A stretch of 62,710 bases of DNA, counting the filler, from Dugesia japonica (lineage: Eukaryota), in assembly GCA_001938525.1 (NCBI GenBank). It is 5 parts of 5 records of this genome, joined end to end, with 100 filler letters (N's around TTAATTAATTAA, not from the genome) between each part and the next. Parts side by side here need not be neighbours in the genome. Positions count along the whole stretch, not along the records: positions 51,084 to 62,710 come from MQRL01638843.1; 4 more parts are not named here. The stretch is one strand, 5' to 3'. The notes under the pieces were generated by a model. The model had not been told where the DNA came from. It ran no database searches and saw only the letters and a program-made list of their open reading frames with translations. This document shows positions 2,880-61,670 of this stretch, one piece after another (the stretch's first letter is position 1; each line of letters starts with the position of its first letter). The translations under genes were made by a program, and so were the position numbers.

Positions 2880-2947
2880 TTTTCTAAAGAAATGATTTAA
2901 TCATACACCCACTAAAAGGAGGTAAATTTTCCATTTAACATTTTATA

Positions 2948-29400: not shown

Positions 29401-29429
29401 GATAAAAATATTATTTTGTTTCTGCTTTC

Positions 29430-34744: not shown

Positions 34745-35750
34745 ATGGTTTAGTTGATGTAATGATATTTGCTGCCAAAACTGGAAACGGAGAAATGGAT
34801 TCCAAACGTCACAGAGGTTTTGTATTTCTAGAATATGAAACCCATTCAGCCGCAGCGAATGCTAGAAGAAAACTTTCTAAACCTGGATTCCGTTTATGGA
34901 ATCGAGAACTCAAAGTTGACTGGGCAGCTAAAAAGCAAGAACCATCACAAGAAGTTATGTCCAAAGTGTGTCTACAATATTAGGAGAAGTAGATGTTTAT
35001 AATTGATTTTTTCTTCAAATTCCAGGTTAAATCTATTTACGTCAGAAATCTCACTGCTGAATGTACTGATCAGAATCTCAGAGATTATTTTTCTAAATAC
35101 GGTGAAATCGAGTCTATCAAAAAAGTCAGAGATTTTGCTTTCATTCATTTTAAGGATAGAGCCTCAGCAATCAGTGCTTTAGATGTTAGTAATAAGACTG
35201 TTTTACCAAATGATATTAGTAATGGCACAATTGATGTGGAACTAGTCAAACCAAATATAAATTCTCAATACAAATCGGTTGGATTCTCTTTTTCTAACCT
35301 TCTTACTCCACCATTTCTCTCTTATCCATATGGATTACCAATACCTCCTCCAGCGCATTTACTACCTCCGCCTCATCTCATGTATGGAATGACTAGTCCT
35401 TCTCATTTGCCTATATCAAATAAAAATAGACGTAATTTTGCTCATTTAATATATATAAAAACTTAGAATTTTTGTCTCTAGCGTCAACAGCGTGGCATAT
35501 CATGAATGGAATCAAAAGTCCAAATATTTCTAATTTACGTCCAAATAAGGTGAACATCCAAAATAATCGTTCACCTGCTTTCGATACCGGTGTTTCCAAG
35601 TGGACTAATAATATAGATAATCAGAACTTTTCAAATTCTACCACACGTCATAATGTGTCTGTTGGTGCTAGCGGGGATAATTCTGGAATTTCTCAAATTA
35701 ATACTTCAGAAAATAAACCACCTAATTTATATTCTGGAAGTAATTATTAA
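34745..35750 (+). CDS. hnRNP Q/R (SYNCRIP)/A1CF/RBM47-family RRM protein, 3' exons 34745-34965, 35026-35431, 35467-35750
   Basis: GLVDV..HRGFVFLEYETHSAAANARRKL..VDWA..EVMSKVKSIYVRNL..KKVRDFAFIHF. Introns of 60 and 35 bp have matching phases. The 5' exons are not visible. Confidence 0.92.
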
Positions 35751-39437: not shown

Positions 39438-40066
39438 ATCCCTCTCTTTGATCATCTGTACTTTGGGTTCGGATTCTTGGTGGTTCGCATTGGGTAGCGC
39501 CTCTTTGTTTGATCTTCTTCCTCTTGTTTATGGTTAAGTCGTGTTCTTATTGACGTTCTTTCGCTCATTGATTTAGAGCTATGTGTATCTTGGGGAATAT
39601 TTTTGATTTGATTGTAGTTAGTTTGTATTATATCATTCCTGTTTAGTAAAATAAAAGTCCATTTATCTGTTATTTCTTTAACTACAAACGGTCCGATGTA
39701 TCTTCGTTTAAATGCTCCATTTTCTTGGGATTTTCTAGATCATAACCTTGTCTCCCAACACGATCTCCTTGCTCCATCGATTTCTGTTATAATTCTCTTG
39801 TTTCTTAATATTGCGATATTCAATATTGTCTCGCACTTTATTANNNNNNNNNNNNNNNNNNNNNNNNNNNNNNNNNNNNNNNNNNNNNNNNNNNNNNNNN
39901 NNTTTGTTAGTGTTTGCAATATTCCATAGGTCAATTTTCGGTCTTCTTCCAAACAGGATTTCATGTGGTGAATATCTGATTGTTTTCTATTTTGTATTTC
40001 GAATTCCGTATTCTACTATAGGTAATGTCGAGCTCCAGTCCTTGATTCCTCTGTCTTCCATAACTG
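39438..40066 (-). mobile_element. Gypsy 3' end: integrase tail, polypurine tract and start of the 3' LTR
   Basis: YSPHEILFGR, LGDKVMI, YIGPFVV; AAAGAGAGGGA is immediately followed by TGTAAT at 39438. Confidence 0.8.
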
Positions 40067-40166
40067 NNNNNNNNNNNNNNNNNNNNNNNNNNNNNNNNNN
40101 NNNNNNNNNNTTAATTAATTAANNNNNNNNNNNNNNNNNNNNNNNNNNNNNNNNNNNNNNNNNNNN
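40067..40166. other. Artificial contig spacer
   Basis: N44-TTAATTAATTAA-N44. Confidence 0.95.
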
Positions 40167-40336
40167 AATTTAAATCTAATGTTACTAAATTAGATATTCA
40201 GTGTGGAGTGGTTGACCTTCAACCTTTACGGGAGGTTCACACACACACCTTTGGTTTGGGTTAGTTTGTTTCCCTATTATTTTAATCGTCAAATAAAGAA
40301 ATAAGATGTTAGTAGTAACATATATTATTTAATAAT

Positions 40337-40597
40337 TCACATCTCATCCAGAGCACCCGGGTCTAACCACTGGGTAGGCTCTTCTGGTAAAAAATCGAAC
40401 AACACTGAGTCGTCATTGTCGTCCCATTGTAAGCATGATACATTGCCTAATTGGCGGGACAGGTCCGATATATAATTCTTTAAAAAATTCATCTTGTTTT
40501 GGAGGAGCTGTTTAGTTTGCTCCGCCAAGTCTCCCTGTTTTTTAACTATTAAATCTAATTTTTTGGTTAATTTATTTCTTTGGGACAAATGCTTCAT
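40337..40597 (-). CDS. Small orphan coiled-coil ORF with acidic tail
   Basis: ORF track, 86 aa; heptad-like L/I spacing; lies inside the LTR-like unit. Confidence 0.45.
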   Translation of the reverse strand: MKHLSQRNKLTKKLDLIVKKQGDLAEQTKQLLQNKMNFLKNYISDLSRQLGNVSCLQWDDNDDSVLFDFLPEEPTQWLDPGALDEM

Positions 40598-40828
40598 GAG
40601 AGCATACTCGTTCTATCGTTTGACATGACGTTCAACTAATAATCGTTGTATCAGGCGGTGGCATCGTCTTAAACTTTTTTGGGAGTTGGATTCTTGGCAT
40701 TAAACAAGAAAGTATCAATTAATGTAACTCTTTTAACAGAAACTAATCTTTGTACAATAAATAACTCGACAGAAAATCAAATTAAAAACATAAAATGGTT
40801 TATTAAATAAATTTATAAATAAACGACA

Positions 40829-41188
40829 TCACAGACGCGTGGTATGCATACCCTTATCGACCATTAACGACTCGAGAGGCATTGCTACTATTAACTTTAA
40901 GACATCATTGACCAGTTTATTCTCTCGGTCTTGATAGGACCGGATGACCTCGATGAAAGATTCTATTTGGGTTTTCCATATTCGCTCTTGATTATGGGAG
41001 GCTTCCGCCTCCTTTTTAAAAGCGAGGCACTTGGCCTTATATCTTTTTACTTTACTCACGGAATTATCAATGTCTGCTTTCCATAGCCATTTCGCTAGGC
41101 GGTATAGGTCCCAAGTCACCTCTTAGTCTTCGTCGATTTCACGTAATTTTTTGGTGGGTGGTATGGTACGAGTTAACGAGGAATGCAC
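40829..41188 (-). pseudogene. Divergent 'MADIIK'-family coiled-coil ORF (one in-frame stop)
   Basis: KWLWK...FIEVIRSYQDRE aligns with LMADIIKTYADRK; starts at TTTAG|TG. Confidence 0.5.
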
Positions 41189-44100
41189 TAAATCAAAATG
41201 AATCATTAGTGAAGTTTACAATTAATTAGTGTAGACAAAAGAAAACACCTTCACAAATCATAGCCTTAAACTAGGCTGGATATTACTTACGACTTGTTCC
41301 TATTTATAAAGAATAATAATCTTAATCAAACGAGAAGACATAAGACTGGTGGTGAAATTACAAAAATTATTATTATTATTACAGCACTTAATAAAAATAA
41401 CAACTATCGTTATCAATGTCAAGTCTCATTATTGGGTGCATTATTTTCGGATTCACCCCCGTCAGCGATATTTCTCAGGTCCCATAAAGTGTTACCTATA
41501 TCACTGTATAATCTTGTGTTGGGAGGTAAATGCTCGACCAAGATGGGGGTCACTGATGGGCCTGCACGCCATTTGCTGGTAGTCGCAATCTCCTCACTAT
41601 TTATAGGTGAAAATGCCGTGGTAGAATGAAATACTTCTCGGCTTCGATCTGGGCCATCCCAAGCATAAAAAGCCTGGAGTTTGGCTTCGGCTCATTCCCG
41701 CTCGTTCTCAGCCTCCTTTGACAAATTTGAATAATCTATAAGAACACCCGCATTCCGATTATAGGGATTCGTATACTTCCTAAATATGGTGCGACCCGTG
41801 CGTCGATCCAACAAAACTTCCCATTTGTGATTCACTAAAAAAATAAAAAATGGTTTTTTATTTATAGACGAAATTTTGTTAAATCATTAATTAAATTTAT
41901 AAGAAACTCAAACAAAGATTTAACAATTTAATTATCCTTTAAAAAAACGTTAACTATAATACTTTCTTATTCAGCGTCGATATCCACATGAAAATTCAGT
42001 GGAACCATCTCAACGAAACAACATAAGTCAGTTTCGTCGGGATATTCGATTTTCTCCTGTGACAATATATAAGCGAGCAGTTGTCTTAACCTGACTGCCT
42101 TACGTTGTTACTTAATCTTCCAGAGCGCATGTTTTAGTTCCGCAGGCATTCTCTAAATATTATGAACGATTTAGACTTAGATTAAGGAATAGAAATATGA
42201 TGACCCCTAAGTGTAATACCGATAAAAAAATAAAACTTAAACGGTAAGTTCCGGTGCTTGCAAAAATAAAATTTAATTAAAATTGAGTGACGATCAAAAT
42301 GCAACAATGCCAATAACAAAGTGTCAAAAACATTGTTCATGATCATAATAAATAAAATCGCATAAAACCTTCCATAATAAGTTTGTTAATCAACTTTTTA
42401 CCTGCTATTATATTAAAACTGTTAGAGTGATCCTCAAAAATTAAAGGAATTATTAACTCGAAAACCGTCGGTAACTTTAAGCTGGGGAATCTGATACAAA
42501 CGACATTTAAACGAACAAAAACAAATAAAGTTGAATCATATAATAAATAACACATACAATAACTAAATAAGTTTTCTGATCTTAAAATCATGATTCCTGG
42601 ATGATAGCAGAACTCTAGTTTGAACAGGTTAACACATTATGTATACTCAGGACACTTCCACTGATAACTACCTACAACCCAGATTGATTTTTCTTGGGGG
42701 TGCAATTTGGATCATTACATTTTCCGGGTGATTTCCTATTGTCTTTTTATTGTCGAAACTTGCTCACATCGCTAGGGTTTGCCGAACATCTGTTACGCCA
42801 AGTGAGAGAAAAGAAATCAGTGCTTAGTTCTATAAGATGGATACGACCAAACAGTTATCTCGCACTACTTCGGGAGATTTTTTCGTCAAGAATGAGTATT
42901 TCGTTTTCTTCTGGCGAAACATTTCCACTCTTTAATTATATTATAGATTATACAAGAAATTCTTTTTCTGATGATTTAATCGATGATCATACGTGATTCC
43001 TTTGTCGCCTGAATTTTAACATCAAGTGGCAGATGCATGAATTGCTAGTGCCTTGCACATATTCACTCAACAAATTATGTTCATATCGGTGCATGGTTGT
43101 ATTAGATAAAATATCGGTATGTGCATTAGTATCGATTTTATTTCCTTTCCCCGACGTAACTACTGATTTAGCTATTGTGATAGTGAGGCAGCAGATGATC
43201 ACCAGATTTTCTTAAAGTAATGTACAGTTTATGAATGGTACCGATCGCATGTAACTAAAATTAGTAACACAAGAAGACCTTATTACTCAATGCGGTTGTC
43301 TAAAAATAAATCTTATAATATCAGGTAATCATTCCATGATTTATTAGCACAAATACTGAATGATTAAATTATTCAATAAATATTATATTTTATTAACAAT
43401 GATCTTCATTCACATAAACTATATGCAATAAAATGCATTAAAATAAAAAGATGAATTACTTACTAAGTGATTTGTTTTGTAAAATATTCTGCAACGGTGG
43501 CCTTTGATTAAGGCTATGGTTAGCTAATTAATGATTTCTACTGTGAATTATCTTCTGGCTCTTTTAGACTACTTTCTTCTACTAATCTAATAAAGTTCTC
43601 GGTTAATTAATTTATCAGTAACGGCGATCTTACAATTTTTTGGTAATCCAATTGAGTACGTAATGCTTCTTAAAAAATCTCGTTTTTTCGTGAACAAGTT
43701 TATACGTAAGTCACTCAAAGAATTTGTAGTAAAAGTTGTTGTTTTTCATCTAAAATTTGGGGTCCTTTTATAGGATTTTCTGAAGCTTCCCGACACCATT
43801 ACCATTGGTTACTTATTTTTAGTTTGAAATTTACATTTCTCATTGGAGATGTTACTAATTTTTAGATTTTTTTAGAGTTTTTTGTGCTTCAATTGGCTTC
43901 TATTTTTGGAGTGACATGTGATTGTCATTTCTTTGTCCTATTTTTATTTTTCGGCCCTTATTGGTTCATTCTCCCAACCCTTGTAAAAACCTTCTGCATG
44001 GTCGTAAGATTTTCTATTGACAAGATCCTAATACTTCGGCACAAATTCTTCTCGAATTTTCTTGTACCAAGCTCCTGTGACTTTCCTGGGCAAAGTTATT

Positions 44101-44671
44101 CGTATAAAACGAATTTTTGAATTATTTTGTTTTATTTTATTTCAAAATTAATTGACATTTTCTGGTAAATAATTGTTTTCCTTTAATAATTTTCTTGGCT
44201 TTTATTATTAATTTAATAATTTCTTTTAATTCTTGGCATTGATGCGTGTTAGCTTTATTCACCCCGGTTCTTCGTATCCATTTTCACTTTTATTTTTTTT
44301 AACGGTTATTTTCATTATAGCCTATCTGGATTCTTAATTGTTTCTCCTTTTGAATTCCATTATTGATGATTATAATAGCCCTTTTGTTCTTCTTTACTGA
44401 TTTGAGATTTTGGGCCTTCTTTTCTTTTCTAANNNNNNNNNNNNNNNNNNNNNNNNNNNNNNNNNNNNNNNNNNNNNNNNNNNNNNNNNNNNNNNNNNNN
44501 NNNNNNNNNNNNNNNNNNNNNNNNNNNNNNNNNNNNNNNNNNNNNNNNNNNNNNNNNNNNNNNNNNNNNNNNNNNNNNNNNNNNNNNNNNNNNNNNNNNN
44601 NNNNNNNNNNNNNNNNNNNNNNNNNNNNNNNNNNNNNNNNNNNNNNNNNNNNNNNNNNNNNNNNNNNNNNN

Positions 44672-46102
44672 TATACCAGCGATAGGTAAACTCGAAATTC
44701 AAAAGAATGTCACAAGAAGGAAAATGAAGAATACAGACAAAAGAAAGAGTCAGACCAGTTACCAAAAGGAATAATTAAAGAAAAAACCGAAATTAAGGAA
44801 CTGAATATGGAGGATGATCAGTAACCTATTAAGTCGCAAAAAGAGAAAAGAAATGTTGGAAGACACAAACAGACTAAGAGAACAAAGAAAGAACAATTAA
44901 TAACAGTAGAAATTAATTCATTAACTGAAAGAAAGAAAGTCAAAAATAATGAATAATTAACGTACAGAAAATAAATTAAATGAATTAATTAGTAGAAGAA
45001 AACAGCGAAATTAAATCAAATTTATATCGGGAGAACAAAGAAATAAACATATAATTAAATTTTATGAATAAAATAAAATAAAATAATTTATTTATTTAAA
45101 TAAAATAAATTATATGAATTAAAATGATTTATTTTGAAGCAGAAAACAAATTATTTGTCAAAAATAAGAAAAATGAAGGTTTTCGATAGTTAAAATTGGC
45201 AGATAAGAAAATTATGGACAAGAAAAAATCGGGGAATTCAAAAATGCAAGTTAGGAAAAAGAAAAGATCCAGAGAAAAGTTATAAGGATCTGAATGTTGA
45301 CCAATAGAACTCCAGTAATTTTGGAATTCCAAAATTCTACCCAATAAGAAGAAATCCTGTGATAAAATTAAAATAACCGGCCAATAAAAATGCCAAGAAT
45401 AATAGAAGGAACGAGGGGGTGAAGAGAAACCGGTATAAATACCGATGAAATTTTCACCAAAATATCATCCTTTTTATCAAAAAAATACTGATGTTGAACG
45501 GAAAATTTTTAATTATCACAGAAGTTGATTATTTTTGCTATTTGATTACTGGTGCAACGATTTTTGGCTCGACTCGAAAATGAAAGATTATGGAGGACCT
45601 CTTGAATCGTTAATGACTACTGAAATAGTGTCAATTCACATGCTATGCTTGCTCCAGATCGGGATTCAGGTCATGTTAGTTGTTTTGCTTATTATAATTG
45701 TTAAATTTATGTACAAGTGACAGTAAAATTTATAATATATTTTTCACTTGTTAAACTTGTTTCTTTTTATTTTTTATTGATTAATTGAACCATAAACTAG
45801 AAAAATCATGATTAATTACGATTAAAATAGATAATACGCTAAAATAGAAACGGATAAAATAAGAGTTACTAGGAGAATAAATAGTAAGAATCAAGTATGA
45901 TTGAAAAACCAAGCGAGTATTATGAAATATGAACCCAAACCAAAGGAGTGCAAGTCTGTACTCGGATTCTGAGTCAACGGCTTCATTCCAAAGATCGAGA
46001 TTTTTGGGGACACCAGATTAAATTCTTTTCGTGGTTTACTAAGCCAACCACCTCAGCCTTGATTATTAAAAAATCACCCCCCCCCTAGATGAAACCCCAA
46101 CA
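44672..46102 (+). mobile_element. ~1.5-kb LTR, empty-site copy of the 51146-55895 LTR; left end lies in the N gap
   Basis: Colinear with 51177-52254 plus 55465-55895. TATAAATA at 45434; ends CCCCAACA. Confidence 0.85.
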
Positions 46103-46296
46103 TTATTATTATTATTATTATTATAATTATTATTGTAATGACTTTTAATCATATTACATTTTAAATTAAAAATATACTTTAAGCAAATTCATTTTGTTTA
46201 AATATTATATTTTAATAGAAAAGCATAAATTAGAATTTATAAAATATTGCCATGTTTGTCTCGTACTATGGAATCAAAATTGTACGAACTCATCAC

Positions 46297-48135
46297 TGGT
46301 GTCAGAAGCTGTTCACACGAGAGCACTCAAATAACTACAAAATTTCCACAATACTTCGAATATCCATCAATGTTGTTCAAGCAAGTTGAAGCAATCTTCA
46401 GGATTTCAAGAATATGAAGAGAAGATTCCAATCTTCTCATGACGGATGGAAGGAAAACCACTGATACATCAATGACCGACATTAGAGCAAAATGGTTCTC
46501 CATACAGAAGAAGTTAAAGAGTGAGATCACGGATCTGAAACAAAGGAATGCACAACTCAGAAGTAAAATTGATAAGATGAAGGAAAGAGAACTGTTGCTA
46601 TCACAAACATGCCGAGCCATGGCAGATATTATTAAGGCCTACGCGGATCAGGCAGGAGTACTGATTTTTAAGTTTTTATGCCCGTTTTTAAATTTCTTTT
46701 AAATTTTTATGCCCGTTTTTTTACTAAGCCTATTTTAAAATGTCTATGAAATATTTTATAACATATTTTAAATTTGATGGTAATTTTTATTTTTTATTTA
46801 TTTGCCAGGGGAGGGGGGTTTTAGGGGGGTCTTCAATGAAAAATCAATGCGGGCAATGCGCCACTATCTACCTACAATCTTATCTACAACTTACTGTCAG
46901 CAGTTCTAGCTACAGAATCCGAAACACCATATACAGTTCTTCGAGAAGCTTAAATCAGCAGTAGCAAACTACCAATCTCAAAACATGTGGATAAAATGCT
47001 TCTCCTCGAACCTCTGGGAGATCAAAGACCATCAGATCGCCTTCAACAACTAGGGAAACACTTCCAAGTGATAGAACCAAATTACAAAGGTACAGACAAT
47101 AGCATGCTGTTAATAGATGCCTTCATAAGAGCAATGCCTCAAAGTATCAAGCCTTATCTCGTCTCTAAGGAAAGCTGCTCATTGACAGAACTAGGACAAT
47201 TGGCTGACAGACTTGCGCAAATTGAATCTTCACAAATTTTACACAGCATCTCAAGTCAAACAAATACAAGCAAAATACAGGAGCTACGAGATGAGATAAA
47301 TCAACTTCAAATGGTTTATGCACAAAAGTCAATATGAACAGATGGAACTTGCTATTACCAGCGCAAATATGAAAAATTAGCCACAAAATGCCGTGAGCCA
47401 TATGATTGGAATTCTAAACAAACACAGGAAAACAGCAAAGGGTCTCAATAATTCCAGTGATTGAAAACCCTATCACTATTGAACCGGAACTCATCTCTAC
47501 AATATTGACTGTTCCAGCAAATTATCAAAGTCAGGTAATAAATTTTCTAATCGACACAGGATCAGATGTTAGTATTCTATCAGCCAAACAATTTCACATC
47601 GATCAATGTGAAACTACCAAACAACTAATTTCAGCTGGTGGTAGCACAATTCTAACTCGAGGACAACGCACTTTAAGCTTTAACATCGTTGGACTTCCAC
47701 AAAAATTCAAGTGGAGATTGATTGTCGCAGAAGTTCGTCAACCGATATTGGGATCAGACTTTTTCAGACATAATGGCATTATAATAGACTGTCGAAGGAA
47801 TCGTATTATTCTTGACAACAACACTGCGCAAGAATCACAAAAGAATGATCATTCCAATAGAACAGCGCACAATTATAATCTACAACACAAACCAGAACTT
47901 TGAATCATGAAAACTGGACCACCTATATCTCAAAGATCTCGAAGGCTAGCTGGAACAATACTTGAAACAGTTCGCCATAAATTTGACAAAACTTCTAGAA
48001 AAAGGAATTGTCAGAAGAAACACGAGCACCAGGGCATCAACGTTGATTGTTGTCAAAAAGAAAGATAATACCTATCGCCCATGCTGTGACTACCAGCTAC
48101 TAAATTCAGTTCCCATTCCTGACAGGTATCCTTTA
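46297..48135 (+). mobile_element. Gypsy internal region: PBS, gag, aspartic protease, 5' RT; truncated
   Basis: TGGTGTCAGAAG PBS (tRNA-Leu-type 3' complement); KFPQYF..LFKQVEAIF; LGDQRPS; FLIDTGSDVSIL..ILGSDFF; IVVKKKDNTYRPCCDYQLLN..PDRYPL. Confidence 0.9.
46439..46702 (+). CDS. 'MADIIK'-family coiled-coil ORF lying inside gag
   Basis: KW..QKKLKSEITDLK..MKERELLLSQTCRAMADIIKAYADQ aligns with 48149-48469 and 54757-55130. Confidence 0.6.
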   Translation: MTDGRKTTDTSMTDIRAKWFSIQKKLKSEITDLKQRNAQLRSKIDKMKERELLLSQTCRAMADIIKAYADQAGVLIFKFLCPFLNFF

Positions 48136-48139
48136 TTAA

Positions 48140-50900
48140 TTTGCATTACTACAAGTCCAGGTACACCGTGGCATTATTCTTTCTTGGTTCCTTCGGTGGA
48201 CTTCGGTACAACAGCCACATCGATCTTAAATTATGAAATAACGTCACCTCTCGATCGGTGAAGATCTTTATGATGTCCGCCATTAATCGGTTGGCTTGTT
48301 GCAGAGCCACCTCCTTTTCTTTCAACTGTTGGTATTTAGTGGTATGCTTTGTTGCCTGGCTCTTCAACTGCAACACTTCATTTCGCAGCCCTCGACGTCT
48401 CTCCTTCCACTTCTTCTGCATATTAAGTACTTCTTTCATGGTTATTTTATTTTCCGCTGTTCTGTCCACTAAATCATAATGAAAATTTAAAATGTTTTAG
48501 CACTACAAACGAATTAGATAGGCAAGCAAAACAATATTATAATTAAACTTGTAATCGACAAAATTTCAAATATGAAAACGACCAATGTGTGAACACTCAA
48601 ATGCAACAATCACTTGTGTCTCGAAACAATAATAACACCCGAATGAAAATTTAAATATAACAATGTCATGACACCACTGCCTTTGCAAAACTTTTGCTCT
48701 GAATCGTGTCTTACATATCACACTCTTTAACGCAAATAATTTCATTAAAATTGAACAAAAATTTCTCAACTCGAAAATTACACTCTAATAATTTCATTGA
48801 TAGTACAATTTATTCAGGCACAGTACCGCTCAAGCCCATCAAATCTTGTATTATCTCACGTTCCGCTGCTTCTTCGTCCATCTCGGCAGCATGTGAAAGA
48901 CAGTAAGTACTAACGATTTTCAGTGGATCACCGGAGAGCTCCTCTTTGAGTTGTTTTATCTGGAACATCGGGGACTCTCGTGCCATTTGAATCTGGAATT
49001 CCAATGATCTGATTCTCGTATTTTTCATTGCCAGCTGCAGACGGACAGTCTTATTGTCAGCCTCTAAATTCCTGATTTCATCGCGCTGAATTTCCGTCTA
49101 CTTCTTCATCTACGCCTGTACTTTGTTCCATTCAATATAATAACGTCCCGCCTCATCAATGTAAGGCCATACATAACGAGGTCTTTAAAGTGATCGTTTG
49201 TTCTTCATCACCTAATAAATGCAAAGTAAACAATATTTATAAATGGAAATATAAATGAGTTCATAATATCAATGATGGATCAGTTTTTATTACGGTTTCT
49301 TCGGCCCGCGGCCTATTATTTTGTTTCCACCGCTGTATAACACGAACCAGAGAAGATGATCACTTAAAGCAAGCATCTTTTCTCGTTCCGGTTATCGTCA
49401 AGCTCTATTAAGAATTCCTTACATCGTTACCATGCAATTTTCCCTGTAGAGATGGTACAAAATGTCTCCTTTCATAATAATAACGATATTAAAAATATAA
49501 ATTAAAAACAGACGCCAATACTGACTAGTTATCGAATTCATTTTTAACTAACTTAATTTTTTGACTGTATCATCAATTACTGCATTGAACCATGAGGTTA
49601 ATATTCATTTACAAAATTTTTATTTTTCGAGAAAATAATTAGTAATAAATAAAATAAAATATATGCCAATTAACCTATTTAAAATTATAGACTGAGCAAA
49701 ATTAAATAATGAATATAATATTTATTATCAGAATTTTCTTTATCGACAAAAATTAAATAAAAATAAAATTTACAAAACCTATAACGTTCATGATTAAAAA
49801 AATTCATATCTCAAATAAAATAAATAGAAGTTGAACATCGATAATCTCTTCCACATAATTGACCAAGCTCCCCAACGTTCCTCGTTTGAACATTACCATA
49901 TTTTACGATTAATTACCCTTAACCTCGACTCGATACATTTCACACCAATCCTTTCTACTCATCTCATAATACTCTTGTACCCTCTTTTCATATCTTTATT
50001 TCCTATCGGCAATAATAAATTTCAATAAATTTCAATATTTCAATATATTTCAATAAATTTTTAAATCTTCTCATTGCTCTCTTGTCATTCTCTCCTGTCT
50101 TACATCGAATTAAATCAAAATATCATTTTTCATAAACAGGAGCCTGGTCATTCAGATGAAATTGATTTTCGGTAATGGCACTCAGAAAAATATTTACAGC
50201 AAAATGTTACAAACAATTAATAATAATACTTGTTTTAATTTCGAAATCGTTTGTCCAAAGATTTAAATCGACTATACTAGTAATATTTGCTTATGTTGAA
50301 AAATACTAAAGAATGATACTATCAAAATTTATTTTAAATTATGCTATCTTTTGTCCTCATCATCTGGTTTTATTCTTCGTTGTAGTAAGACATTTTGGCC
50401 CTCGATTAGCCTGCCAATGATTTTATGATTTTCTCTCTCCGAGTTTCCCGATTGGTTTCCCCTTCCTCGTGTTTGGTGTACATCTCTCAGTGTTTTTGCA
50501 TGTGAACTCAGACATTTCGGATTTCGATAAGTTTCGACTGTCACCTCGAATGTGACCTCTTATTAATCCGTTGGGTTCCATGCAAAGTCCTTGCCTGATT
50601 CCTGGTGAATAAGCAGTTTTCGTAGTTTATTTGCGAGTATTATCACCCGATTCAGACAAGACAATATGACTGGACCAAACTTAATTATCTTTATAATAAT
50701 ATCAAACGCTAATTAGCGTTATTTATAATAAACAAAACTGGTCGTAGAGACCCTTCTAATATTTTATTATATTATTGTAGATTATTTTTATTATTTAATT
50801 CGTCATATCCTTTTATCTCATATAATTTTCATTCAAATGTGATGACATTTGGGTCTTCTACGCCTGATTTTCGATTTTCGACATTTTCATAAATAATTTC
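48140..50900 (-). mobile_element. Truncated homolog of the 52255-55460 gene cassette
   Basis: Same order: WNxT..VTVE ORF (~50690-50340), conserved hairpin/GGCC block (~49290-49400), coiled-coil ORF B (~49210-48810), MADIIK ORF (48469-48149). Confidence 0.75.
48149..48469 (-). CDS. 'MADIIK'-family coiled-coil ORF, intact frame
   Basis: KKWKERRRGLRNEVLQLK..KEKEVALQQANRLMADIIKIFTDR..LRSMWLLYRSP. Confidence 0.7.
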   Translation of the reverse strand: MDRTAENKITMKEVLNMQKKWKERRRGLRNEVLQLKSQATKHTTKYQQLKEKEVALQQANRLMADIIKIFTDREVTLFHNLRSMWLLYRSPPKEPRKNNATVYLDL

Positions 50901-50901
50901 A

Positions 50902-50925
50902 TAATAATTATTATAATAATAATTA

Positions 50926-50983
<58 letters not shown>
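50902..50983. repeat. (TAA)n microsatellite
   Basis: Direct reading. Confidence 0.95.
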
Positions 50984-51083
50984 NNNNNNNNNNNNNNNNN
51001 NNNNNNNNNNNNNNNNNNNNNNNNNNNTTAATTAATTAANNNNNNNNNNNNNNNNNNNNNNNNNNNNNNNNNNNNNNNNNNNN
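50984..51083. other. Artificial contig spacer
   Basis: N44-TTAATTAATTAA-N44. Confidence 0.95.
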
Positions 51084-53225
51084 TTAGAATATTTAAAAAT
51101 TAATTAGAATTAAGTATTTAAATATGATATTTTAAGTAATGCATCTGTTGGGGTGAATCACTTGATATTGAAAAATAAACCAGCAATTAGGTACACCTGA
51201 AATTCGAAAGAATGTATACGAAATAAAACGAAGAATACAAACAACAGAAGGAGTAAAATCAGTTACGGAAAGGAATAATTGAAGAAAAAGACCGTGATTA
51301 CCGAACTAAAGAAGGAGAGATGACTCGTACAAAGAGAAGGAAATGTTGAAAAAACACAAACGGACTGAAAGAACAAAAAAAGGACAATTGATAACAAATA
51401 AAATTAATTCATTAACTAAAAGAAAGAAAGTCAAAGAAAATGGATTATCATCTCACAGAAAATAAATAAAAACGAATTAATTAGCAAAAGAAAACAGCGA
51501 AATTAAATTAAAGTTAATCAGGAAGACAAAGAAATGAACAANNNNNNNNNNNNNNNNNNNNNNNNNNNNNNNNNNNNNNNNNNNNNNNNNNNNNNNNNNN
51601 NNNNTAAAATAAATCTAAGAATTTAAAATAAATTATTTTTAAAAGAAAAATAATTGTTTCATGAAAAATGGCAAAAACAACGACTTTCCATAGTGAAAAA
51701 TTAGCAATTAAAATGGTTCTGGTCTAGAAAAAATCGGAAATCTTGAAAATCTAAGTTAAAAAATCGTTAGGAAAAAAGATACAAGGGTTGGAAGGTTGAC
51801 CAATAGATTCTAAGTCCAAAAATATCAACCAATAAAAGAGCTCACATGACGTTCAAGCCAATGGAAACGTCAGAAAAGTCGTACTATTCCAAATAACCAA
51901 TGAACGAAATTGGGGTGTGAAGAGAAACCGGTATAAATACCGATGAAAATTTCACCAAAAATCAATCTTTATCAGGGAAAATATCGAGTTTGACCGGAAA
52001 ATATTCAATTATCACAAAAGGTGATTATTTTTACTCTTTGATTCATGGTGCAACGATTTNNNNNNNNNNNNNNNNNNNNNNNNNNGGAACCCACAATAAT
52101 CAGTGTCGTTATGAAGATGGGGATCCAAGTTCATGGTTAATTGTTACGCAATTGGTGGTCATGATAAATACAATAAATCCTGTGTGCTTGCTCCGGATCG
52201 GGATTCAGTCATGTTAGTTGTTTGCTTATTATAATCGTTAAATTTATGTACCAGTGTTGGGCTAGAACACCAAAAATGGTGAAATAATAGAGTATGCAAA
52301 GATTGGCAAAATATTCCGAAAGTAAAGAAAAGTAAATATAAGATGGATGAGCTGGACCAGAAAATTGATTATTATGCATAAAATTATTATTATTATTGTT
52401 GTTATTATTATTATAATTATTATGAGAATATTATAAATAACGAAAATAAAAAATTGGGCAGGAAAGAACCAAATTTTATGTTACAAAACTGAAAATAATA
52501 TTAGAAGAAAGGAAANNNNNNNNNNNNNNNNNNNNNNNNNNNNNNNNNNNNNNNNNNNNNNNNNNNNNNNNNNNNNNNNNNNNNNNNNNNNNNNNNNNNN
52601 NNNNNNNNNNNNNNNNNNNNNNNNNNNNNNNNNNNNNNNNNNNNNNNNNNNNNNNNNNNNNNNNNNNNAGCTGATGAAAAATAACACGAAAATAATCAGC
52701 AGATTAGCTGAATCATTCCCTGCTAGACAAGGACTTTCTCTTGGTAACAATCCGAGGTCACACGAGGTGACTGACTGGAGAAACTAAGTCCTTTCCGAAG
52801 CGATGTATCGAAATTCGTACGACACAACACAACAATGAAGACGAAGACAACAACCAATCAGAAACCCGGATTGGACGAAAAACGAAGACGATTGGCGAGC
52901 AAATGAAGCAGGCCAAGTTGGGGTGTAAACGATTAATAAAACTCGTTTGCACCAGAGAATTAAACAGAAAATTTTTAAAATTTTAAAAAGAAAAAAAATA
53001 TTTTACTTAACGAAATTTTATTTTTTAACTATTCATTGGTAAAAACAATTTGGAAATTGCCACCAACTCGTGTCAAGAAGAAGAAAGACAAACCCACAAA
53101 TTTATTATCCAAATTTTTCGGAAAAAGGAGAATTGAAATAAATTCGATTAGTAAGCAATATTTTTTTTATTATTTTATCAAATTTCAAAAATAAAAACCT
53201 TTATTTTTTTCGTTTTCTACATGTG

Positions 53226-53500
53226 ATGCCGAGTGCCCTTGAAACGGTCATACTGCTAGTATCAAGAAAATTAGATGGAGAAATTATGGCCGAAATCTTA
53301 GGGTGGCAGAAAGTTGGAATTCAAAAATGGAATAGAACCAGAGAATTTGATGGGAAAATTATGCAGATCAGAAGGGTGACAGTCGAGTAACAGTATAAAA
53401 TTATTGAAGTTGAAATGACGGACGAACGATAAATTTGTTGGATTGTACCTGATAGAAAATGTCGCCAGAAATTGAATGATTTATGAGAGCTCGATTAATA
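53226..53500 (+). pseudogene. Cassette ORF A (orphan, disrupted)
   Basis: LETVILLVSRKL..KWNRT..RVTVE aligns with LNRVIILANKL..AWNPT..EVTVE at ~50690-50530 (-). Confidence 0.45.
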
Positions 53501-54029
53501 CCTTTGTTGTTTTTTAAATAATGCGTTGTAGCAGGCGGAACCGTGTCGTTAATGCTGAATTGACTTGAAATATTATAGTTTTGTAGTTGTGATTTCCACT
53601 TGTTATCTTTTAATTTTTATCATTTAATAATAAGAGGGTATTGAACTAATTTCAGTATTATAATACCTAAATTAAAAACGTGATTTCAATTGGTACTCAT
53701 TCATTTTTATAATTATAGCAGTAACCAATTTTGTGAAAATTTATAATTTAATTTTTTTTCTACCGCCAGAGAAGTATTTTTTTATTTACATCTCTTTTAT
53801 TTTACATCTCTTGCGAGAGTTCCATAAACATGAGAACGAGGAAAGATGATGGTTAAATCGTCATCTTCTCTGGTTCGCATATTCGGAGCAAGGAATCAGA
53901 ACTGATAGGCCGCAGGCCGAAGAAACTATAGCCAATTATTTATCTCATTGATCAATTATTGCTTAAAATTATACTTATATTCATGCCAAAAGAATAATTA
54001 AATTTAAATATTTTTTTATTATACAGATT

Positions 54030-54497
54030 ATGACAGTCTATTTTAAACCGCACATCTTGCTTGTGCTTACGAATGACGGAGAGGAGGGAACTTTCTGGAT
54101 TCCCTGGAGAAACGCGGTGGAATTGTTGGATGAACAGAAAGCGGTATACGAAAAAGGAAAAACTGATTTACTCTACAAAGGCGGCCAACTGGTTACGAAA
54201 TTCCGGGGCCTAAAACAATAGCTAAGGGATACCAAATCGAAGTTGCTGTTATGTCAACAAGAAAATGATAGACTCCGGCAGGGGAGACAAGCAATTAGAG
54301 AAAGTACGGAAAACTTGATTCGGCAACAAATGGAGCATAATTTATTATTGGGTCAGGTTTTGGCACTGACACCTGAAAGCACACAGGAGTCGAGTGGTGT
54401 CCAGCAGTTGGTCATCGTAAAGAGTAGCTTGCGACAAAGAATCAAAAAAAATTTTGAGTATTTCGGGATTTTGATCTTGTTTTTCAATTTTTATTAA
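54030..54497 (+). pseudogene. Cassette ORF B (coiled coil, one in-frame TAG)
   Basis: The two track ORFs share a frame. GEEGTFWIPW resembles DEAGRYYIEW at ~49160 (-). Confidence 0.5.
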
Positions 54498-54756
54498 AGA
54501 GGTCTAAGTGATATGTATGTCACTCAATGGTTACTAATTGTGAAATCTGCAGAGGCAGTAGTAGATAGAAATGTATGTTATCAAATCTAAATTTTTTTTG
54601 GTGTAAGCCAAACACAGAGTCAATTTTCTTTTATTCTAATAACAATCGGTTAACGTTAACTAAGTTTGGGTTCCTTTACTGGAGTATTACTTTAGTTCAT
54701 TTAAAATTTATTATAATCGTATTAGTGTTACAGATATTAAATGTTGACATTTATTA

Positions 54757-55130
54757 GTGAATAAATCGAAAGATACAAAGCTGTCGAGAGGAGAGGAAAA
54801 CGGACCACAAAGATGGAAAGAGGAGCGTCGAGAGTTAAAAAATGAAATCTTGAGGTTGAAGGGGCAGGTCTTGAAATNNNNNNNNNNNNNNNNNNNNNNN
54901 NNNNNNNNNNNNNNNNNNNNNNNNNNNAATCGACAGCCAAATATAATCAAATCAAGGAGAAGGAACTGTCCCTTCAGCACGCGAATCGATTGATGGCCGA
55001 CATCATCAAGACGTACGCGGATCGAAAAGGCTCCATGTTCGTTTCGCTGCGGACATTATGGCTCAATTATCGATCCCCAGAGGAAACAAGTACAGTTACG
55101 GAATCGACGATCGATTTGGATGCCAAATAA
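54757..55130 (+). CDS. Cassette ORF C, 'MADIIK' family (frame broken only across the N gap)
   Basis: QRWKEERRELKNEILRLK..KYNQIKEKELSLQHANRLMADIIKTYADRK..LRTLWLNYRSP. Confidence 0.7.
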
Positions 55131-57537
55131 ACGGAGTATACTGTAAAAATAAATGTTATTCAGTGTTGGTTGGAGTGATTCTGTATTATAGTACTACTTA
55201 TTTATTTGCATCCACTAGATTTATTTTTACTGAGCATGTTAGATTAGTACAGACCGGGTTCACAGGTTTTATAAGTAAGACGCGGTACCGCAAAGTCGCG
55301 CTGAACCTGTGGAAATAAAGGGGTATGTCACAGAGGTGACATAAATACTTGTGGTTTTTAGGTATGCCCCTAGACAGGTAATTGTAATAGAAATTATTGG
55401 AAACGAGATCGGTAAATTTGAAGCTAACATTTTAAAATACCAAATCCTAAAAACCCAACACCAGTAACAGTAAAATTTAGAATATATTTTTTCACTCGTT
55501 GAATTCTTCTATTCCTTATAACAGTAAAAACATAAGGTATTGATTTTTAACCTAAAAGTAGTAATTAAGCAAACTCGATTAAAAATGTTTAACCGTTAAT
55601 GTGAAAAGATTTTAATTAATGAGGACCTCAATAATTGATAAAATGAAATCTAATAAACGAGTTATAAGCTAAAGTCTAATAAACTAATGACTTATAAGTA
55701 ATAAGCATGATTTATAATAAATTTGGACCCAAAACAAAGGAGTGTGAGTCTGTACTCAGATTTCGAGTCAACGGCTCCATTCCGAAGATCTGGATCTTTG
55801 GGGACACCAGATTAAATTCTTGACGGGGTTTTATTAGGCCAATCACCCTAGACATAATTATTAAAAAATCGGCCCACATAGATAAAACCCCAACACATCT
55901 TTGAAAAAAGAAATGAAAGCTATTTGATATATAAATTTTTTAAAATTCGATATTTTGAATATCTTCAATTTTTTGATTTAAGTCTTTTATTCCATCAGCT
56001 TTATAGTTTTCAATAAAACAAGAATCTGTATGTTTATTAAATTGTTTTTTACTAATTTTAAATTTTTCATTAAAATAATTACATTTCCATTGGTAAGTTA
56101 AAGTTTTACAATTTCCAGTACCAATAAATTTTTCTTGACAAACATATATATTCTCTCATTTTAATCAATAAATATTTAATGTGAGTAAATGAGAATATAA
56201 AATGAGGAAATGAGGACTTTGTTCGCATCTTGAAAAAAATTGAATCAAATTAAAACATCTTGAAATAAAAATTATTTAAATATAAAAATGTCTCAGATTT
56301 CAAAATCGAAAGAAGTTAGTCTTGATATTTTAAATAAAATAAAAATGAATATACTAAATAAATTGAAAGATAAAAAATTAGAACATCCAATAAAATCAAA
56401 TAGTAAAATAGCTAAAGAAATAAATTATCCAATAAGAAAATTAAATGAAATATTAAGGAAAATGAATTGATTGAAGAAATTAAAGTTAGAAAAGCAACGC
56501 ACAGATATTCATATGATCCTATTTTAAAAAATAATTTAGAAATTCAATAGGTGAATATATATGATAAAAAATTAAAAATATTTAAAGAATCTGAAATAAA
56601 AAGAAAATTAAAACATAATGAAATATTAGAAGAAAGAAATAAAAAACATGAATTATATTTAATTGCATATGCTAAAAATCCAAATAAACATCCAAAATTA
56701 TGTGATTTAATAAAAAAGTATCCTGAAATTAATTTATCGCAGAGCTATGCTCGAGATTCTGATAATAATCCAAAAGCTGGTGGTATAAATATAAATCTCG
56801 AGCAAAGCTCTGCGAGTAATGAACTTGAACCTGAAATTTTTGATCCTCGAACAGAATTCTGTGAACAAAATTCTATTCAAGAAATTAAACAAAATGACAT
56901 TTATAAAATTACATCTAATATGGATAATATGGATAATATTGATCGAGAATTGATAATAAATTTTAAAAAGTCATACAAAATTTAAAATTCTCAAATTCTT
57001 TCAATAAAAAAATGGATGATTATCTTGATAATGTAAAAAAAGATCCAGAGTTTTTAAATGATTTNAAAAAGATTATCCAATAGTATGTAAATTAACACCT
57101 AAAGAACAAAGTGTAATGTTAAAAGAAATTTATTCAAATTATAAAGCAATTATAAAAACTGGTGAAATTTTAGTTGAAACTATATGTGAAATGAAAATGT
57201 TGAATTAACAGAAGAAAATATTCAATTAAAATATGTATTAAATGATAATAATTTATATAATGATGAAAATTTAAAATTTTATAGACAGAATAATAATAAA
57301 AAAAGAATATTCAAAAGATATCAAATCAATAGTAAATTATAGGTTAAATAAAACTTTGAATAAATTAAATAGTTTAAAATAATGCTTTAATAAATAAATT
57401 ATTATTTAAACAGAAAAAGTTATAAAATTATATGAAGGATGTGATTATTTAATTTTAGAGGTGGAATTTTTAAAATATTTTTTAAAAAACAATATTTTTA
57501 ATTTTTTTTTATTTTTGTAATGTTCTTATCATAGAAA

Positions 57538-58825
57538 ATGGAAGGATTAAAATTAGATATAGACAATAATTATGTTTTTAATCATGTAATATCTAAAAAG
57601 GATTTATTAAAAATATCACCAACAAGTAGTTCAATAGTTAAATTAAATCAACCTGGTGATATATTATTTCAATCATTACAATCAACAAATCCATTAGATA
57701 TTGGAAAATGCAATGTTATATTACAGAATAAAAATTGATACAACTACAGAAACTAAAATAAAATTGGAAAATAATTGGTTTCCAGCATTATTTAAAACAA
57801 TGAGATTTAAATTAGGATCAACAGTAGTTGAAGAAATGAATGATCCAGGAATTATATCAACAATGTTAAATTTAATTTTATATGATGAAGCAGTAAAACA
57901 TTATATAAAAGCATATGGTTGGATTCCAGATAATGAAGATGGTCTTGCAACAACAACAAATAAAGGATATCAATCCAGATTAAAATTATATACTGGTAAA
58001 AAATATGAAGGTTATTTTCCATTAAATAATTTATTTGGATTTATTCAACATTTTAATAGATTATTATATAATGTATTTATACAATTAGAACGTAATAGAC
58101 AAATAGATGATAAATTAATATTTTATGGCAAGTTTAAAATTATTAGCTTTAGAATTACATATTCCAGAATATACATTAAATCCAATAAAGGAAATGGAAT
58201 ATATAGAAGTAATAACAACTAATAAACCTATTCCAGTGTCATTTTTAAATCGAATTTCTGGAAATTAATCAATGGAAGCAGGAACTAATTATTCAATTAA
58301 AATGGCAAATTTAGCATATAAACCAAAATTTATTTTAATTGTATTTAAACCAGCAGAAATATCATTTGATAAAAATAATAATTTATTTATGCAACAAAAT
58401 AGTATAACTAAAAAAATGATAAAAAAGAAAAAGTTACAACAAAATATTGTATAAAAAGTATTCAAATTCAATTAAATAATACATATTATTCAATAAATAG
58501 AATGGAAATGAATATTAATAATAATGAAGAAATATTTCCATATCAAGCATATGTAGAAAAATATTAAAATTTTTTTTAATCAACCACAATCAACATGAAT
58601 TTAATGGAAAACTTTATATTCAATGTTTTGTATGAATGTATCAAAACAAGATTCAAAATTATCAATAAATAATGTAGATGTACATTACATATAACAAAAG
58701 AAACAAATTTTAAATTAAATATATATTGGTGTATATTAGAAAAAAAACATGTAGAATTAAAATTAGCAACTGATAAAATTGTATTTGTTGAAGATGTTAG
58801 AGGATAAGATGTTTCAAAAGGTTAA
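57538..58825 (+). pseudogene. Double jelly-roll major capsid protein (Polinton/adintovirus type), frameshifted
   Basis: LNQPGDILF, IKLENNWFPALF..LGSTVVEEMNDPGIISTMLNLI, FPLNNLFGF, KPKFILIVF; span about 430 codons. Confidence 0.75.
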
Positions 58826-59040
58826 TTTATAATTTATATAGAACATGGAGAATTGTTTGTAAGACTTCACAAAGAAAACATTTACTTGTATTTTTTGTAA
58901 TCAAATAAAATCTAAACATAATAAATCAATTGCAATTATTGCGAGAATAATTGTTGGACGCTACCATTGATCGTTTTTTAGAATTCATTTAAAATAAAAG
59001 CTTCGATCAAAAAAATTTTTGTTATATTTTTTTGGAGATT

Positions 59041-59075
59041 GAATCGATATTTCGACTTTGTCTTCGTCAGGAATT
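59041..59075 (-). ncRNA. Minimal hammerhead ribozyme motif
   Basis: AAUUC-CUGACGA-A-GAC-AAA-GUC-GAAA-UAUC-GAUU. Confidence 0.75.
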
Positions 59076-59088
59076 AAATTGAAAAGTC

Positions 59089-59123
59089 AATTCCTGACGA
59101 AGACAAAGTCGAAATATCGATTT
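59089..59123 (+). ncRNA. Minimal hammerhead ribozyme motif
   Basis: AAUUC-CUGACGA-A-GAC-AAA-GUC-GAAA-UAUC-GAUUU; intact core with a predicted AUC cleavage triplet. Confidence 0.75.
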
Positions 59124-59288
59124 AATCTCAAAAAAACAACATAAAAAAATTTTTTGATCGAAGCTTTTATTTTTTAATCAAGACATTTAAAATTATGAAT
59201 TACAAAGAAAGGGGCGATTTACAAAATAATAAATTAGTTTCATTATTATTAACACAATTTCCACAAGAAACATTTAAAGGAAAAAAGA

Positions 59289-60600
59289 CATATTCCTGGT
59301 CATAATTTTACTGGTCCAGGAACAAATTTTGAGAAAAGATTAGATGAAAATAATAATCCATTTCCAGGAAATGAACCAATAAATCAAGTTGATAAAGCTG
59401 CATATAAATATGATTTAGTATATAAAAAAGAAGATATTGGAGATAGACATATTGTTGATTTAAATATGATTCATGATTTAAATAATATGATTAATCCAAC
59501 ATTAAGAGAAAAATTAGAAGCTGAATTAGTTAAATTAATATTTAAAAGAAACATTCTTATTGGAAAAAGTATTTCAGGAGAAAATTTAGCGACAGAATTA
59601 CATAAAAATATAGAAAACCTAAAAAATATTTAAAATTTATAATTAATGAAATTGATGAAACATGGGGATGTGATATTGCTGATATGGTTAAAAAATCTAC
59701 GGATTCAAAATTTCGTTATATATTAGTTTGCATTGATTTATATTCTAGATATGAATTTTGTGTTCCAATGATTAATAAAATTCAAGAATCATTAAAAGAA
59801 CCATTTGAATTTATATTTGAAGAAAATAATAGAATTCCAAATAGTATATGGTTTGATAAAGAATCCTCAATAAAATCAAAATATTTTGATAAATTTATCA
59901 AAGAAAATAATATTAATTTATATCATACAGAGAATGAGGGAAAATCAGTTTTTGCAAAAAGATTTATTAAAACTTTAAAAAAAAAGTAGAAATATTTTAC
60001 ATCAATTGGAAACTAAAAATGGAATAATAATTTATTATAACAAATTGTCAATGAAAATAATAATACAATTCATAGTTCTATAAAAACAACACCAAAATAT
60101 GCTAGTGAAAATCCAGATAAAATAAAAGAAATTATTAATTAACATAATCATGAAAACTCCAACTTTAATTTTAAACAAAATTTAAAAATAGGAGATCGAG
60201 TTAGAATATTTATTTTTACAATTGCAATCATTGCGAGAATAATTGTTGGACATAACCATTGATCATTTTAGGGAATTCATTTAAACTAAAAGCATCGATC
60301 AAAATTTTTGTTTTTTTATTGATATTTGATAACAATTATAACAATTATAAACAATTCAATTGTTATTAAATATCAAAATAAACAAAACTTTTTATCGAAG
60401 CTTTTATTTTAAATGAATAGAATATTTAAATATAAATAAAAATTTGAAAAAGGATTTACAGATAAATGGACAAATGAAATAATTATAATAACAGAAGTAT
60501 ACAAGACAAAACCAATAACATATGGAATTACTGATTTAGATAATGAAAAGATTTTGGGTAGATTTTATGATAATGAACTTCAAAAAACTATATTTAAAAT
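59289..60600 (+). pseudogene. Parvovirus-VP1-like PLA2 domain in frame with a Polinton rve integrase
   Basis: HIPGHNFTGPGT..PINQVDKAAYKYDLVY reads on to LATELHK. Then WGCDIADM, YILVCIDLYSRY, IWFDKES, GDRVRI, FEKGFTDKWT, GRFYDNELQK, with frameshifts and stops. Confidence 0.9.
60213..60417. mobile_element. Second Penelope-like inverted-repeat insertion, no hammerhead core
   Basis: Same tail and arms as 58930-59175. An 11-bp TSD TAGAATATTTA (60202-60212 / 60418-60428) splits the integrase at GDRVRIF|KYK. Confidence 0.85.
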
Positions 60601-60925
60601 TTTTGTTTTTATAAATTTATAAAATATAATGTAAAAATAAATATAAGAATGGTTAAATATAGAAAGTATAAGATGAAATATATGAATCACTTGAGTTTTG
60701 TAATGAATTAAATTTAATTACTAATATTAGTCCTGGTTTTTGTATATTATAATATTTTATAATATAATATAATATTTCATTTGGCAAATAAAATATCCAA
60801 TGATTTAATTAATAAACAAAAAAGTTGGAATTAGAAAAATTAAAACAAGAAAATAAAAATCTAAAATTAGAAAATGAGAACCTAAAATTAGAAAATAATA
60901 AACTTTAATTTTTATTAAAAAGAAA

Positions 60926-61670
60926 ATGTCTAAAATCTCGCAAAGCACTGCTCGAGTAAAATCCCGCTGATTTGGAATAAAAATAAAAAATTATTTAATA
61001 ATAAAATATTTCCATCAAATTTTAGATTATTAATTATAGGATCATCAGGATGTGGGGAAAATGTATTATTATTAAAAATGTTAATTAACACCGGACTTTA
61101 TACATTATAATAATTTAATTATTTATTCAACAACTATAAATCAATTTGAATTACAATTAATGAGAGAAGGATTTGAAAATGGTTTATCAAAAGAAGATAT
61201 TATTTTAATTATTGAAAAACANNNNNNNNNNNNNNNNNNNNNNNNNNNNNNNNNNNNNNNNNNNNNNNNNNNNNNNNNNNNNNNNNNNNNNNNNNNAAAA
61301 AACCACAAAGTATATTTATAACATTAAGTAATAAACCTAATGATATAATTCCATGTGATCAATTATCGAATGCCTCTGCAAAAAAGAATTTAATTATTTT
61401 TGATGATGTTGTTAATGAAAAAAATCAAGAAATACAAAAATCATATTTTACAAATAATAATTGTAATGTAATTTATATAACACAAACATATTTTCATTTA
61501 GATAAAAATTCAATAAGAAATAATAGTAATTGTTTTATATTTTTTAATTAAATAAAACAGATAAAGATAATTTATATCATGATTTATTTAGTAATATTTT
61601 TTATAATAAAATGGAATATGATTATCAAGTAACATTGCATTGGAAAACAAAATATAATTATTTTTATTTN
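60926..61670 (+). pseudogene. A32/FtsK-like genome-packaging ATPase
   Basis: FRLLIIGSSGCG(K) Walker A, NLIIFDD Walker B, VIYITQTYF, SIRNNSN. Confidence 0.88.

Follow-up and report, generated by a model that had tools for sequence, protein, structure and literature searches.

A 3.2-kb element in Dugesia japonica, probably the gene-bearing solo long terminal repeat of a giant Gypsy-type retrotransposon

Ends, insertion sites and relatives of the element

The stretch of DNA analysed here (the window) comprises 62,710 nucleotides of the Dugesia japonica genome (GenBank assembly GCA_001938525.1), five parts from five records joined end to end, and its last part (MQRL01638843.1) carries the subject of this work, a 3.2-kb element that we call Z. 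This element has the short ends and the target-site duplication of a Gypsy-type long terminal repeat (LTR), lies inside a second LTR-like unit, Y, and holds a promoter-like cluster, two coding segments and three structured blocks (Table 1). It is a real, multi-copy mobile element.

The TGTTGGG and CCCAACA ends and the exact CCAG duplication described in an earlier note on this DNA are present, and the inverted repeat is limited to these 7 bp. The ends match the TGTNR pattern of Gypsy LTRs, and the note's reading of TG...CA ends with a 4-bp duplication as an integrase footprint holds for Z. By themselves, such ends and duplication are weak evidence: the window contains 31 inverted pairs of 7 bp that start with TG and are flanked by a 4-bp repeat, compared with 8-31 in 20 shuffles. 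When only pairs with at least four G/C in the heptamer are counted, there are three in the real sequence against 0-1 per shuffle, and Z and its host unit Y are two of these three.

The boundaries are fixed by empty sites. For this comparison with DNA and RNA data, four of the 24 listed runs were used at a likeness threshold of 82%, loose ends being those in the listed rows. A joint leading directly from 52249 to 55460 was found in four contigs of DNA run X1 and in five of DNA run X6, and the paralogous unit X has a single CAAG (45714-45717) at the corresponding place. The empty site that had been reported near 45715 is therefore real, but X is not a sister LTR: X and Y are 79% identical (1047 of 1325 columns) and Y has a CATC duplication of its own, which rules them out as two LTRs of one provirus and makes them separate insertions. 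Relatives of Z connect the 3' structure to identical terminal bases via a shorter spacer, with joints from 55374/5 to 55442 in six plus five contigs of X1, five plus nine contigs of X6 and three reads of run X22. Both assembly gaps that had been noticed inside the element are there (153 and 50 N); 54874 is joined to 54928 in eight X1 and five X6 contigs, and therefore little or no sequence is likely to be missing at the second gap. Self-comparison found no direct terminal repeats inside Z.

Contigs placed on Z numbered 7181 in X1 and 4669 in X6, and in both runs all 30 bins were covered. Summed depth in X1 was about 600-27,000 over the interior, 30,000-79,000 at 52584-52946 and 320,000 at 55246-55366; this is not copy number, as short overlapping contigs inflate depth, and from it we take no more than that relatives with the promoter region and the 3' structure far outnumber those with the open reading frames (ORFs). 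A 22-letter motif of the 3' structure had no match in metagenome and viral contigs. At many positions Z stands apart from nearly all other copies, and it therefore carries private changes; this copy looks decayed and nearly silent.

Coding segments, structured blocks and transcripts

Two coding segments with a guanine-plus-cytosine (GC) content of 0.44 stand between spacers of 0.15-0.28. Coding content had been claimed as at least three small ORFs, and the content is there but the count is two: ORF A, which has one stop, and ORF C, which is interrupted by an assembly gap. A candidate acceptor AG (54756-54757) precedes ORF C and is found at the same place and in the same phase in unit V, a diverged paralogue of Z. 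Over 104 codons, the proportions of synonymous (pS) and nonsynonymous (pN) differences between Z and V are 0.883 and 0.316, with 42, 28 and 66 differences at the three codon positions. The bootstrap range of pN/pS is 0.26-0.49, where the saturated pS makes the ratio overstate dN/dS (the nonsynonymous to synonymous rate ratio). Comparisons with a third paralogue, W, go in the same direction (pN 0.39 for Z-W and 0.45 for V-W, at pS 0.86-0.87). Judged by these comparisons ORF C is under purifying selection, and not in the unconserved state, with dN/dS about 1, that the earlier note had considered.

Database relatives of ORF C were limited to two unnamed singletons, P0001 (profile E 9e-36, one of 76 candidates) and P0002 (E 6e-5). 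No Pfam family was above cut-off, the bZIP matches of W (E 0.007-0.012) being below it; the best match among PDB sequences had an E of 0.068, none of six matches in a viral fold search reached E 0.001, and matches in the Atlas amounted to generic coiled coils whose recognition did not reach the mark. In metagenome contigs 327 pattern matches to P0001 were obtained and none was confirmed. The fold predicted for P0001 is a single helix over residues 16-94 (pLDDT 82, pTM 0.43), and the two-copy prediction has a homodimer score of 0.53, against 0.01 for the best control, with a heptad interface. The runs have no fewer than 60% of contacts in common, at a pLDDT of at least 75; in calibration the mark was reached by 21 of 30 solved pairs and none of 23 single chains from microbes, and by 17 of 29 pairs (animals 7 of 16; 1 of 7 for those without an older solved relative) and none of 30 single chains from eukaryotes. 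The ORF C protein is thus predicted to be a parallel homodimeric coiled coil. In Z, P0001 and P0002 a variable linker is followed by a hydrophobic-DLD C-terminal motif, a tail which we take to resemble a SUMO-interacting motif.

The ATG of ORF A, at 54030, lies four bases past a T-rich acceptor-like AG, and its in-frame stop is missing in 18 X1 and six X6 contigs. None of 44 candidates was a homologue of ORF A, no family matched in a scan of the Z frames, and nothing significant was found against frames of V, W and a further unit, U (seven comparisons; best z 2.3, 11 of 300 shuffles).

Colinearity between Z and V spans about 2.8 kb, in which blocks are conserved and AT-rich spacers are near background, most other bins having 0.39-0.53 identity. 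Kept in V are the microsatellite, the block upstream of the promoter motifs, the promoter motifs, block B and ORF C. The CCAAT boxes, the AATAAA and the structured 3' end described earlier are all present. CCAAT is at 52854, ATTGG at 52870 and 52891, GGGGTG at 52920 and AATAAA at 55314; V retains CCAAT and the second ATTGG, and the order of CCAAT cluster, GGGGTG and TATA is also found in the shorter units X and Y. Folding of the 3' region is better than that of shuffles (z -2.27, 4 of 200), above all in its second domain (z -3.78, 0 of 100), and 55246-55375 has the highest summed depth in both DNA and both RNA runs. For block B, z is -3.2 in Z and -4.05 in V, with 0 of 100 shuffles each, and its upper stem has a different sequence in the two units and pairs in both. 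The block upstream of the promoter motifs folds less clearly, with a z of -1.18 in Z (not significant) and -2.27 in V. On alignment, conservation within the family extends to the promoter-like motifs and the three structured blocks. Splicing of the donor at 53151 to the acceptor at 54026 would place block B in an intron, as retroviral packaging and export signals are. A palindrome, GTCAC-N-GTGAC, occurs in Z at 52757-52771, within the upstream block, and at 55327-55340, within the 3' structure, and in V at 50540-50556, and nowhere else in the window; possibly it is a repeated protein-binding site.

Two other readings were considered. Block B as a coding exon is rejected, since its frames differ between Z and V, with the fold kept. 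A hammerhead ribozyme at 52671-52720 is not supported: closure of helix II is impossible, the core is tied up in an alternative hairpin, and V is without it, though one arm is in an N gap. Rfam gave no match at E up to 1 in 44000-56200, and there was no tRNA in the sequence scanned.

From two RNA runs, 10.5 and 13.6 million records were read (about 6% and 25% of the runs), of which 41 and 386 were placed on Z. These reads lie mostly on the conserved blocks, and therefore it is diverged relatives that are transcribed, the subfamily of Z being nearly absent in the samples. The sole pile-up of RNA ends is of five molecules at 55010. Poly(A)-selected reads of relatives cover 52584-52946, upstream of the TATA-like motif, and reads of relatives also pass AATAAA and the following hairpin, reaching a median of 48-73 letters beyond 55363-55376 towards the terminus. 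This read-through weakly favours Z as a unit that bounds longer transcripts.

Table 1. Positions of the features of element Z and of related units in the window
Feature	Position	Strand	Remarks
Element Z, likely solo LTR	52255-55460	+	3206 bp including 203 N; ends, duplication, empty sites
Left target-site duplication, CCAG	52251-52254	.	
Right target-site duplication, CCAG	55461-55464	.	
5' terminus, TGTTGGG	52255-52261	+	7-bp inverted repeat
3' terminus, CCCAACA	55454-55460	+	last ~19 bases common to relatives with shorter spacer
A-rich 5' part with ATT microsatellite, predicted U3	52262-52515	+	A 0.47 over 52255-52515; matched in V
Hairpin-like family-conserved block, upstream of promoter motifs	52669-52790	+	aligned with V; high summed depth
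Promoter-like cluster, predicted start	52854-52945	+	CCAAT, two ATTGG, GGGGTG, TATA-like run
Candidate splice donor, GTAAG	53151-53155	+	
Block B, conserved predicted RNA hairpin, probably in first intron	53834-53930	+	77% identity, Z against V
Candidate splice acceptor, T-rich, just before ORF A	54005-54026	+	
ORF A, 155 codons, in-frame stop 54219-54221	54030-54497	+	stop missing from other copies
ORF C exon, split by assembly gap	54758-55130	+	predicted long helix, C-terminal DLD motif
Two structured domains flanking AATAAA (55314-55319)	55246-55375	+	most widely shared part of Z
Host unit Y, LTR-like	51146-55895	+	1540 bp without Z; own CATC 4-bp duplication
Unit X, 79% paralogue of Y	44672-46102	+	empty site 45714-45717; 5' end inside N gap
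Unit V, diverged colinear paralogue of Z	48150-50983	-	truncated at both ends; ORF C frame open 48496-48152
W, third ORF C paralogue	46418-46702	+	tblastn E 2.5e-8

Origin of the element

We propose, at a probability of about 0.68, that Z is the solo LTR of a giant Gypsy-type retrotransposon with a long R region containing spliced accessory genes. The earlier note had left a choice between a giant LTR and a non-autonomous cassette, and we infer the former because reverse transcription is unable to restore the two ends of a solitary unit that has its promoter inside and apparent introns; such a unit is rebuilt only when a longer RNA carries it at either end. In the proposed course of events a two-LTR parent, with a primer-binding site (PBS), gag, pol and a polypurine tract (PPT) in the order LTR-PBS-gag-pol-PPT-LTR, would have integrated into the older unit Y, and recombination between the LTRs would then have left a single one. 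U3 would extend over about 52255-52960 and transcription would start near 52965. Small proteins would be made from a spliced, LTR-only RNA, and in unspliced read-through RNA block B would be retained, to serve in export or packaging. Use of AATAAA may be regulated by the structured 3' domains, with cleavage behind the second hairpin, or with the signal skipped in the 5' LTR. As for ORF C, the role we favour in view of its SUMO-motif-like tail is that of a small counter-silencing or RNA-handling dimeric helper of the element, perhaps.

Several observations speak against this proposal. No two-LTR copy, PBS or PPT was present in the flanks examined (after X, Y and Z; before Y and Z), and an R region of 2.4 kb is far longer than usual. 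Of the RNA reads placed, 98% and 95% continue into unlike sequence, and only 5 of 427 are at least 99% alike, so that expression from a solo LTR, as the earlier note envisaged it, is unsupported for this copy itself. The two RNA runs have no splice joint among those listed, and neither a start pile-up nor a poly(A) pile-up at the proposed sites; the start near 52.95 kb and the poly(A) site near 55.33 kb are accordingly unconfirmed, with reads of relatives running through. No homology was detected when ORF A of Z was compared with the ORF in the corresponding position of V (z 0.5), and no upstream exon could be assigned to ORF C. The dimer prediction may reflect a generic coiled coil, and the exact DLD is found in three of the five family members (Z, P0001 and P0002), V having a variant and W being without it.

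LTRs are normally non-coding, and LTR-LTR recombination normally leaves non-coding relics. If Z is an LTR, recombination leaves complete units of promoter, gene and poly(A) signal instead. Solo LTRs would then form a dispersed family of accessory genes, with possible effects in trans on host silencing or on the element itself, and Z-like units would be miscalled in annotation as lineage-specific host genes. ORF C represents a small protein family that has no named relative and a testable fold.

Of the other explanations the one that survives best, unlikely as we find it, is a stand-alone, LTR-only gene cassette without an internal region, which an integrase of Gypsy or Ginger type, acting in trans, would copy as a unit. 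The units with readable flanks, Z and Y, are all solitary, and a 209-bp contig has a depth of 325 against 4-19 in seven other listed pieces of its run, which suggests a young near-identical subfamily, depth not being the same as copy number. However, the inverted ends are 7 bp long, against 40-270 bp in Ginger, and Z has no internal direct terminal repeats; a copy reverse-transcribed from the RNA of an internal promoter would have neither the ends nor the introns, and full-length giant elements are under-represented in fragmented assemblies. Just as doubtful to us is a new type of element that would consist only of the gene-bearing giant LTR, with its own promoter, selected spliced coiled-coil genes and conserved RNA signals, that would have no gag-pol parent, and that would have become numerous via a Gypsy-type integrase in trans.

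We give somewhat less credence to a giant LTR with its genes in U3, a secondary promoter and a short R at the 3' structure, in the manner of the mouse mammary tumour virus (MMTV) sag gene or of foamy viruses. No block is shared more widely than the 3' structure, on which most RNA reads lie, and reads do cover the region upstream of the promoter-like cluster. MMTV itself encodes Sag in U3, upstream of the LTR promoter (described in PMC12548423), and like the coding segments of Z this gene is inside the LTR and so is kept by solo LTRs. MMTV, however, is a retrovirus with its gene upstream of the promoter, whereas the coding segments of Z are downstream of the promoter-like cluster and its predicted start, and have apparent introns. 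Moreover, the sole CCAAT cluster with GGGGTG and a TATA-like run is at 52854-52945, in the order seen in X and Y, and there is no TATA match near the 3' structure.

A non-autonomous Ginger-like or other DNA transposon with captured host exons is largely refuted. Ginger1 and Ginger2 have TGTNR termini, a 4-bp duplication, a length of 2.6-7 kb, introns, inverted repeats of 40-270 bp and a Gypsy-like transposase (PMC2836005); Z is like them in its termini, duplication, length and apparent introns. Z, however, is without long inverted repeats. The earlier note had seen no transposase, and none of the six scanned Z frames contains a transposase or integrase family (203 N lie in Z, one gap being near zero), although a non-autonomous copy would not need one. 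The CCAG and CATC duplications are unlike the CCGG/CCGT of Ginger1, and ORF C has no named host homologue. An assembly chimera or chance boundaries are hardly credible: the assembly is gappy, chance can produce 7-bp ends beside a 4-bp repeat and none of the listed contigs spans the whole of Z, but empty sites join exactly at its ends in nine contigs from two runs, V is colinear with Z, and the terminal bases are common to relatives.

The solo-LTR reading places Z beside giant elements already described. Ogre elements of plants have LTRs of 1.9-6.5 kb, and Burro/GYPSM1 of planarians exceeds 30 kb (PMC6431247, section 7); Z is like them in its Gypsy-type ends and, as regards Ogre, in the multi-kb size class of its probable LTR. 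In that section their extra ORFs of unknown function are in the internal region or polyprotein, whereas in Z the coding segments are inside the probable LTR, a comparison made by description. The hallmark of Burro/GYPSM1 is a giant internal polyprotein (gag, env-like, pol), and Z is known here without a linked internal region. GLT2 is a Repbase transposon family of Schmidtea mediterranea, and its probe, in the supplement of PMC8532177, represents the transcript of a PIWI-silenced transposon. Compared by eye only, the reverse strand of this probe has an AT-rich, intron-like stretch and then an open heptad-like frame, and it has nine letters across the acceptor identical to the ORF C exon of V. 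Against ORF A of V it has eight matches in a 21-residue stretch, which coiled-coil composition could give by chance. Because of this likeness, the architecture of Z may already be catalogued. Our literature search, made without Repbase and Grohme 2018, yielded no description of any Gypsy LTR that contains a spliced gene under selection, and no family names were found in the accessible part of the PMC6884822 supplement. Plant retrozymes are described as non-autonomous LTR elements with a hammerhead ribozyme in the LTR (PMC4918200); they resemble Z in having a conserved structured RNA in the LTR, and Z differs in being coding and in having no Rfam match. The hammerhead core-like strings at 52671-52720 of Z border on an N gap and are not retained by V. 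LARD and TRIM elements have two direct terminal repeats around a non-coding interior, whereas Z has no pair of direct repeats and its interior is coding.

Neighbouring units and other features of the window

The ends of the host unit Y are TGTTGGGG and CCCCAACA, and the terminal heptamer is identical to that of Z. Between X and Y, the remains of gag, a protease and the start of a reverse transcriptase are found at 46954-48150 (+), the protease matching Pfam RVP at E 1.4e-4; this is a decayed ordinary gypsy element cut by V. No relative of the protease was found among 801 longer candidates. The gag end of the remnant resembles the degenerate CHCC motif of the CsRn1 clade (clade features from PMC2582038).

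Unit U is LTR-like and at least 4.2 kb long (40168-44432, -), with a CCAAT cluster at 43964-43808, a TATA at 43772 and three open frames (41883-41422, 41122-40832, 40612-40340); it shares a 3' motif with X. Its frame at 41122-40832 is the best non-self match of the ORF C profile, at E 0.16 and 8.7 bits compared with 8.1 bits for the best of 500 shuffles, and on this score the link of U to ORF C is weak. Both V and U are truncated by part joins; the joins, at 17295-17394, 27466-27565, 40067-40166 and 50984-51083, each consist of 44 N, TTAATTAATTAA and 44 N, a filler that does not represent true distance.

Two further decayed gypsy remnants, neither of them linked to the giant units, are found at 29400-32150 (-), with a CCHC knuckle and an integrase zinc finger, and at 39450-40066 (-), where a purine tract and TGTAAT come after an integrase-like end. 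Polinton-/adintovirus-like remains at 720-2900 (-) and 57698-61551 (+), which we presume to belong to the Polinton/adintovirus group, include double-jelly-roll-like (below cut-off), phospholipase A2-like and integrase sequences and zinc fingers. A 2.4-kb element at 11848-14288 has inverted arms of about 290 bp with 82% identity and is probably a DNA transposon. A near-perfect 90-bp palindrome is present at 58991-59173, with partial copies at 13526-13614, 3891-3991 and 60211-60418. Most 1-kb bins of the window have a GC content of 0.2-0.3, and host-like exons at 10680-11207, 16852-17265 and 34993-35466 encode C2H2 zinc fingers and an RNA recognition motif (RRM).

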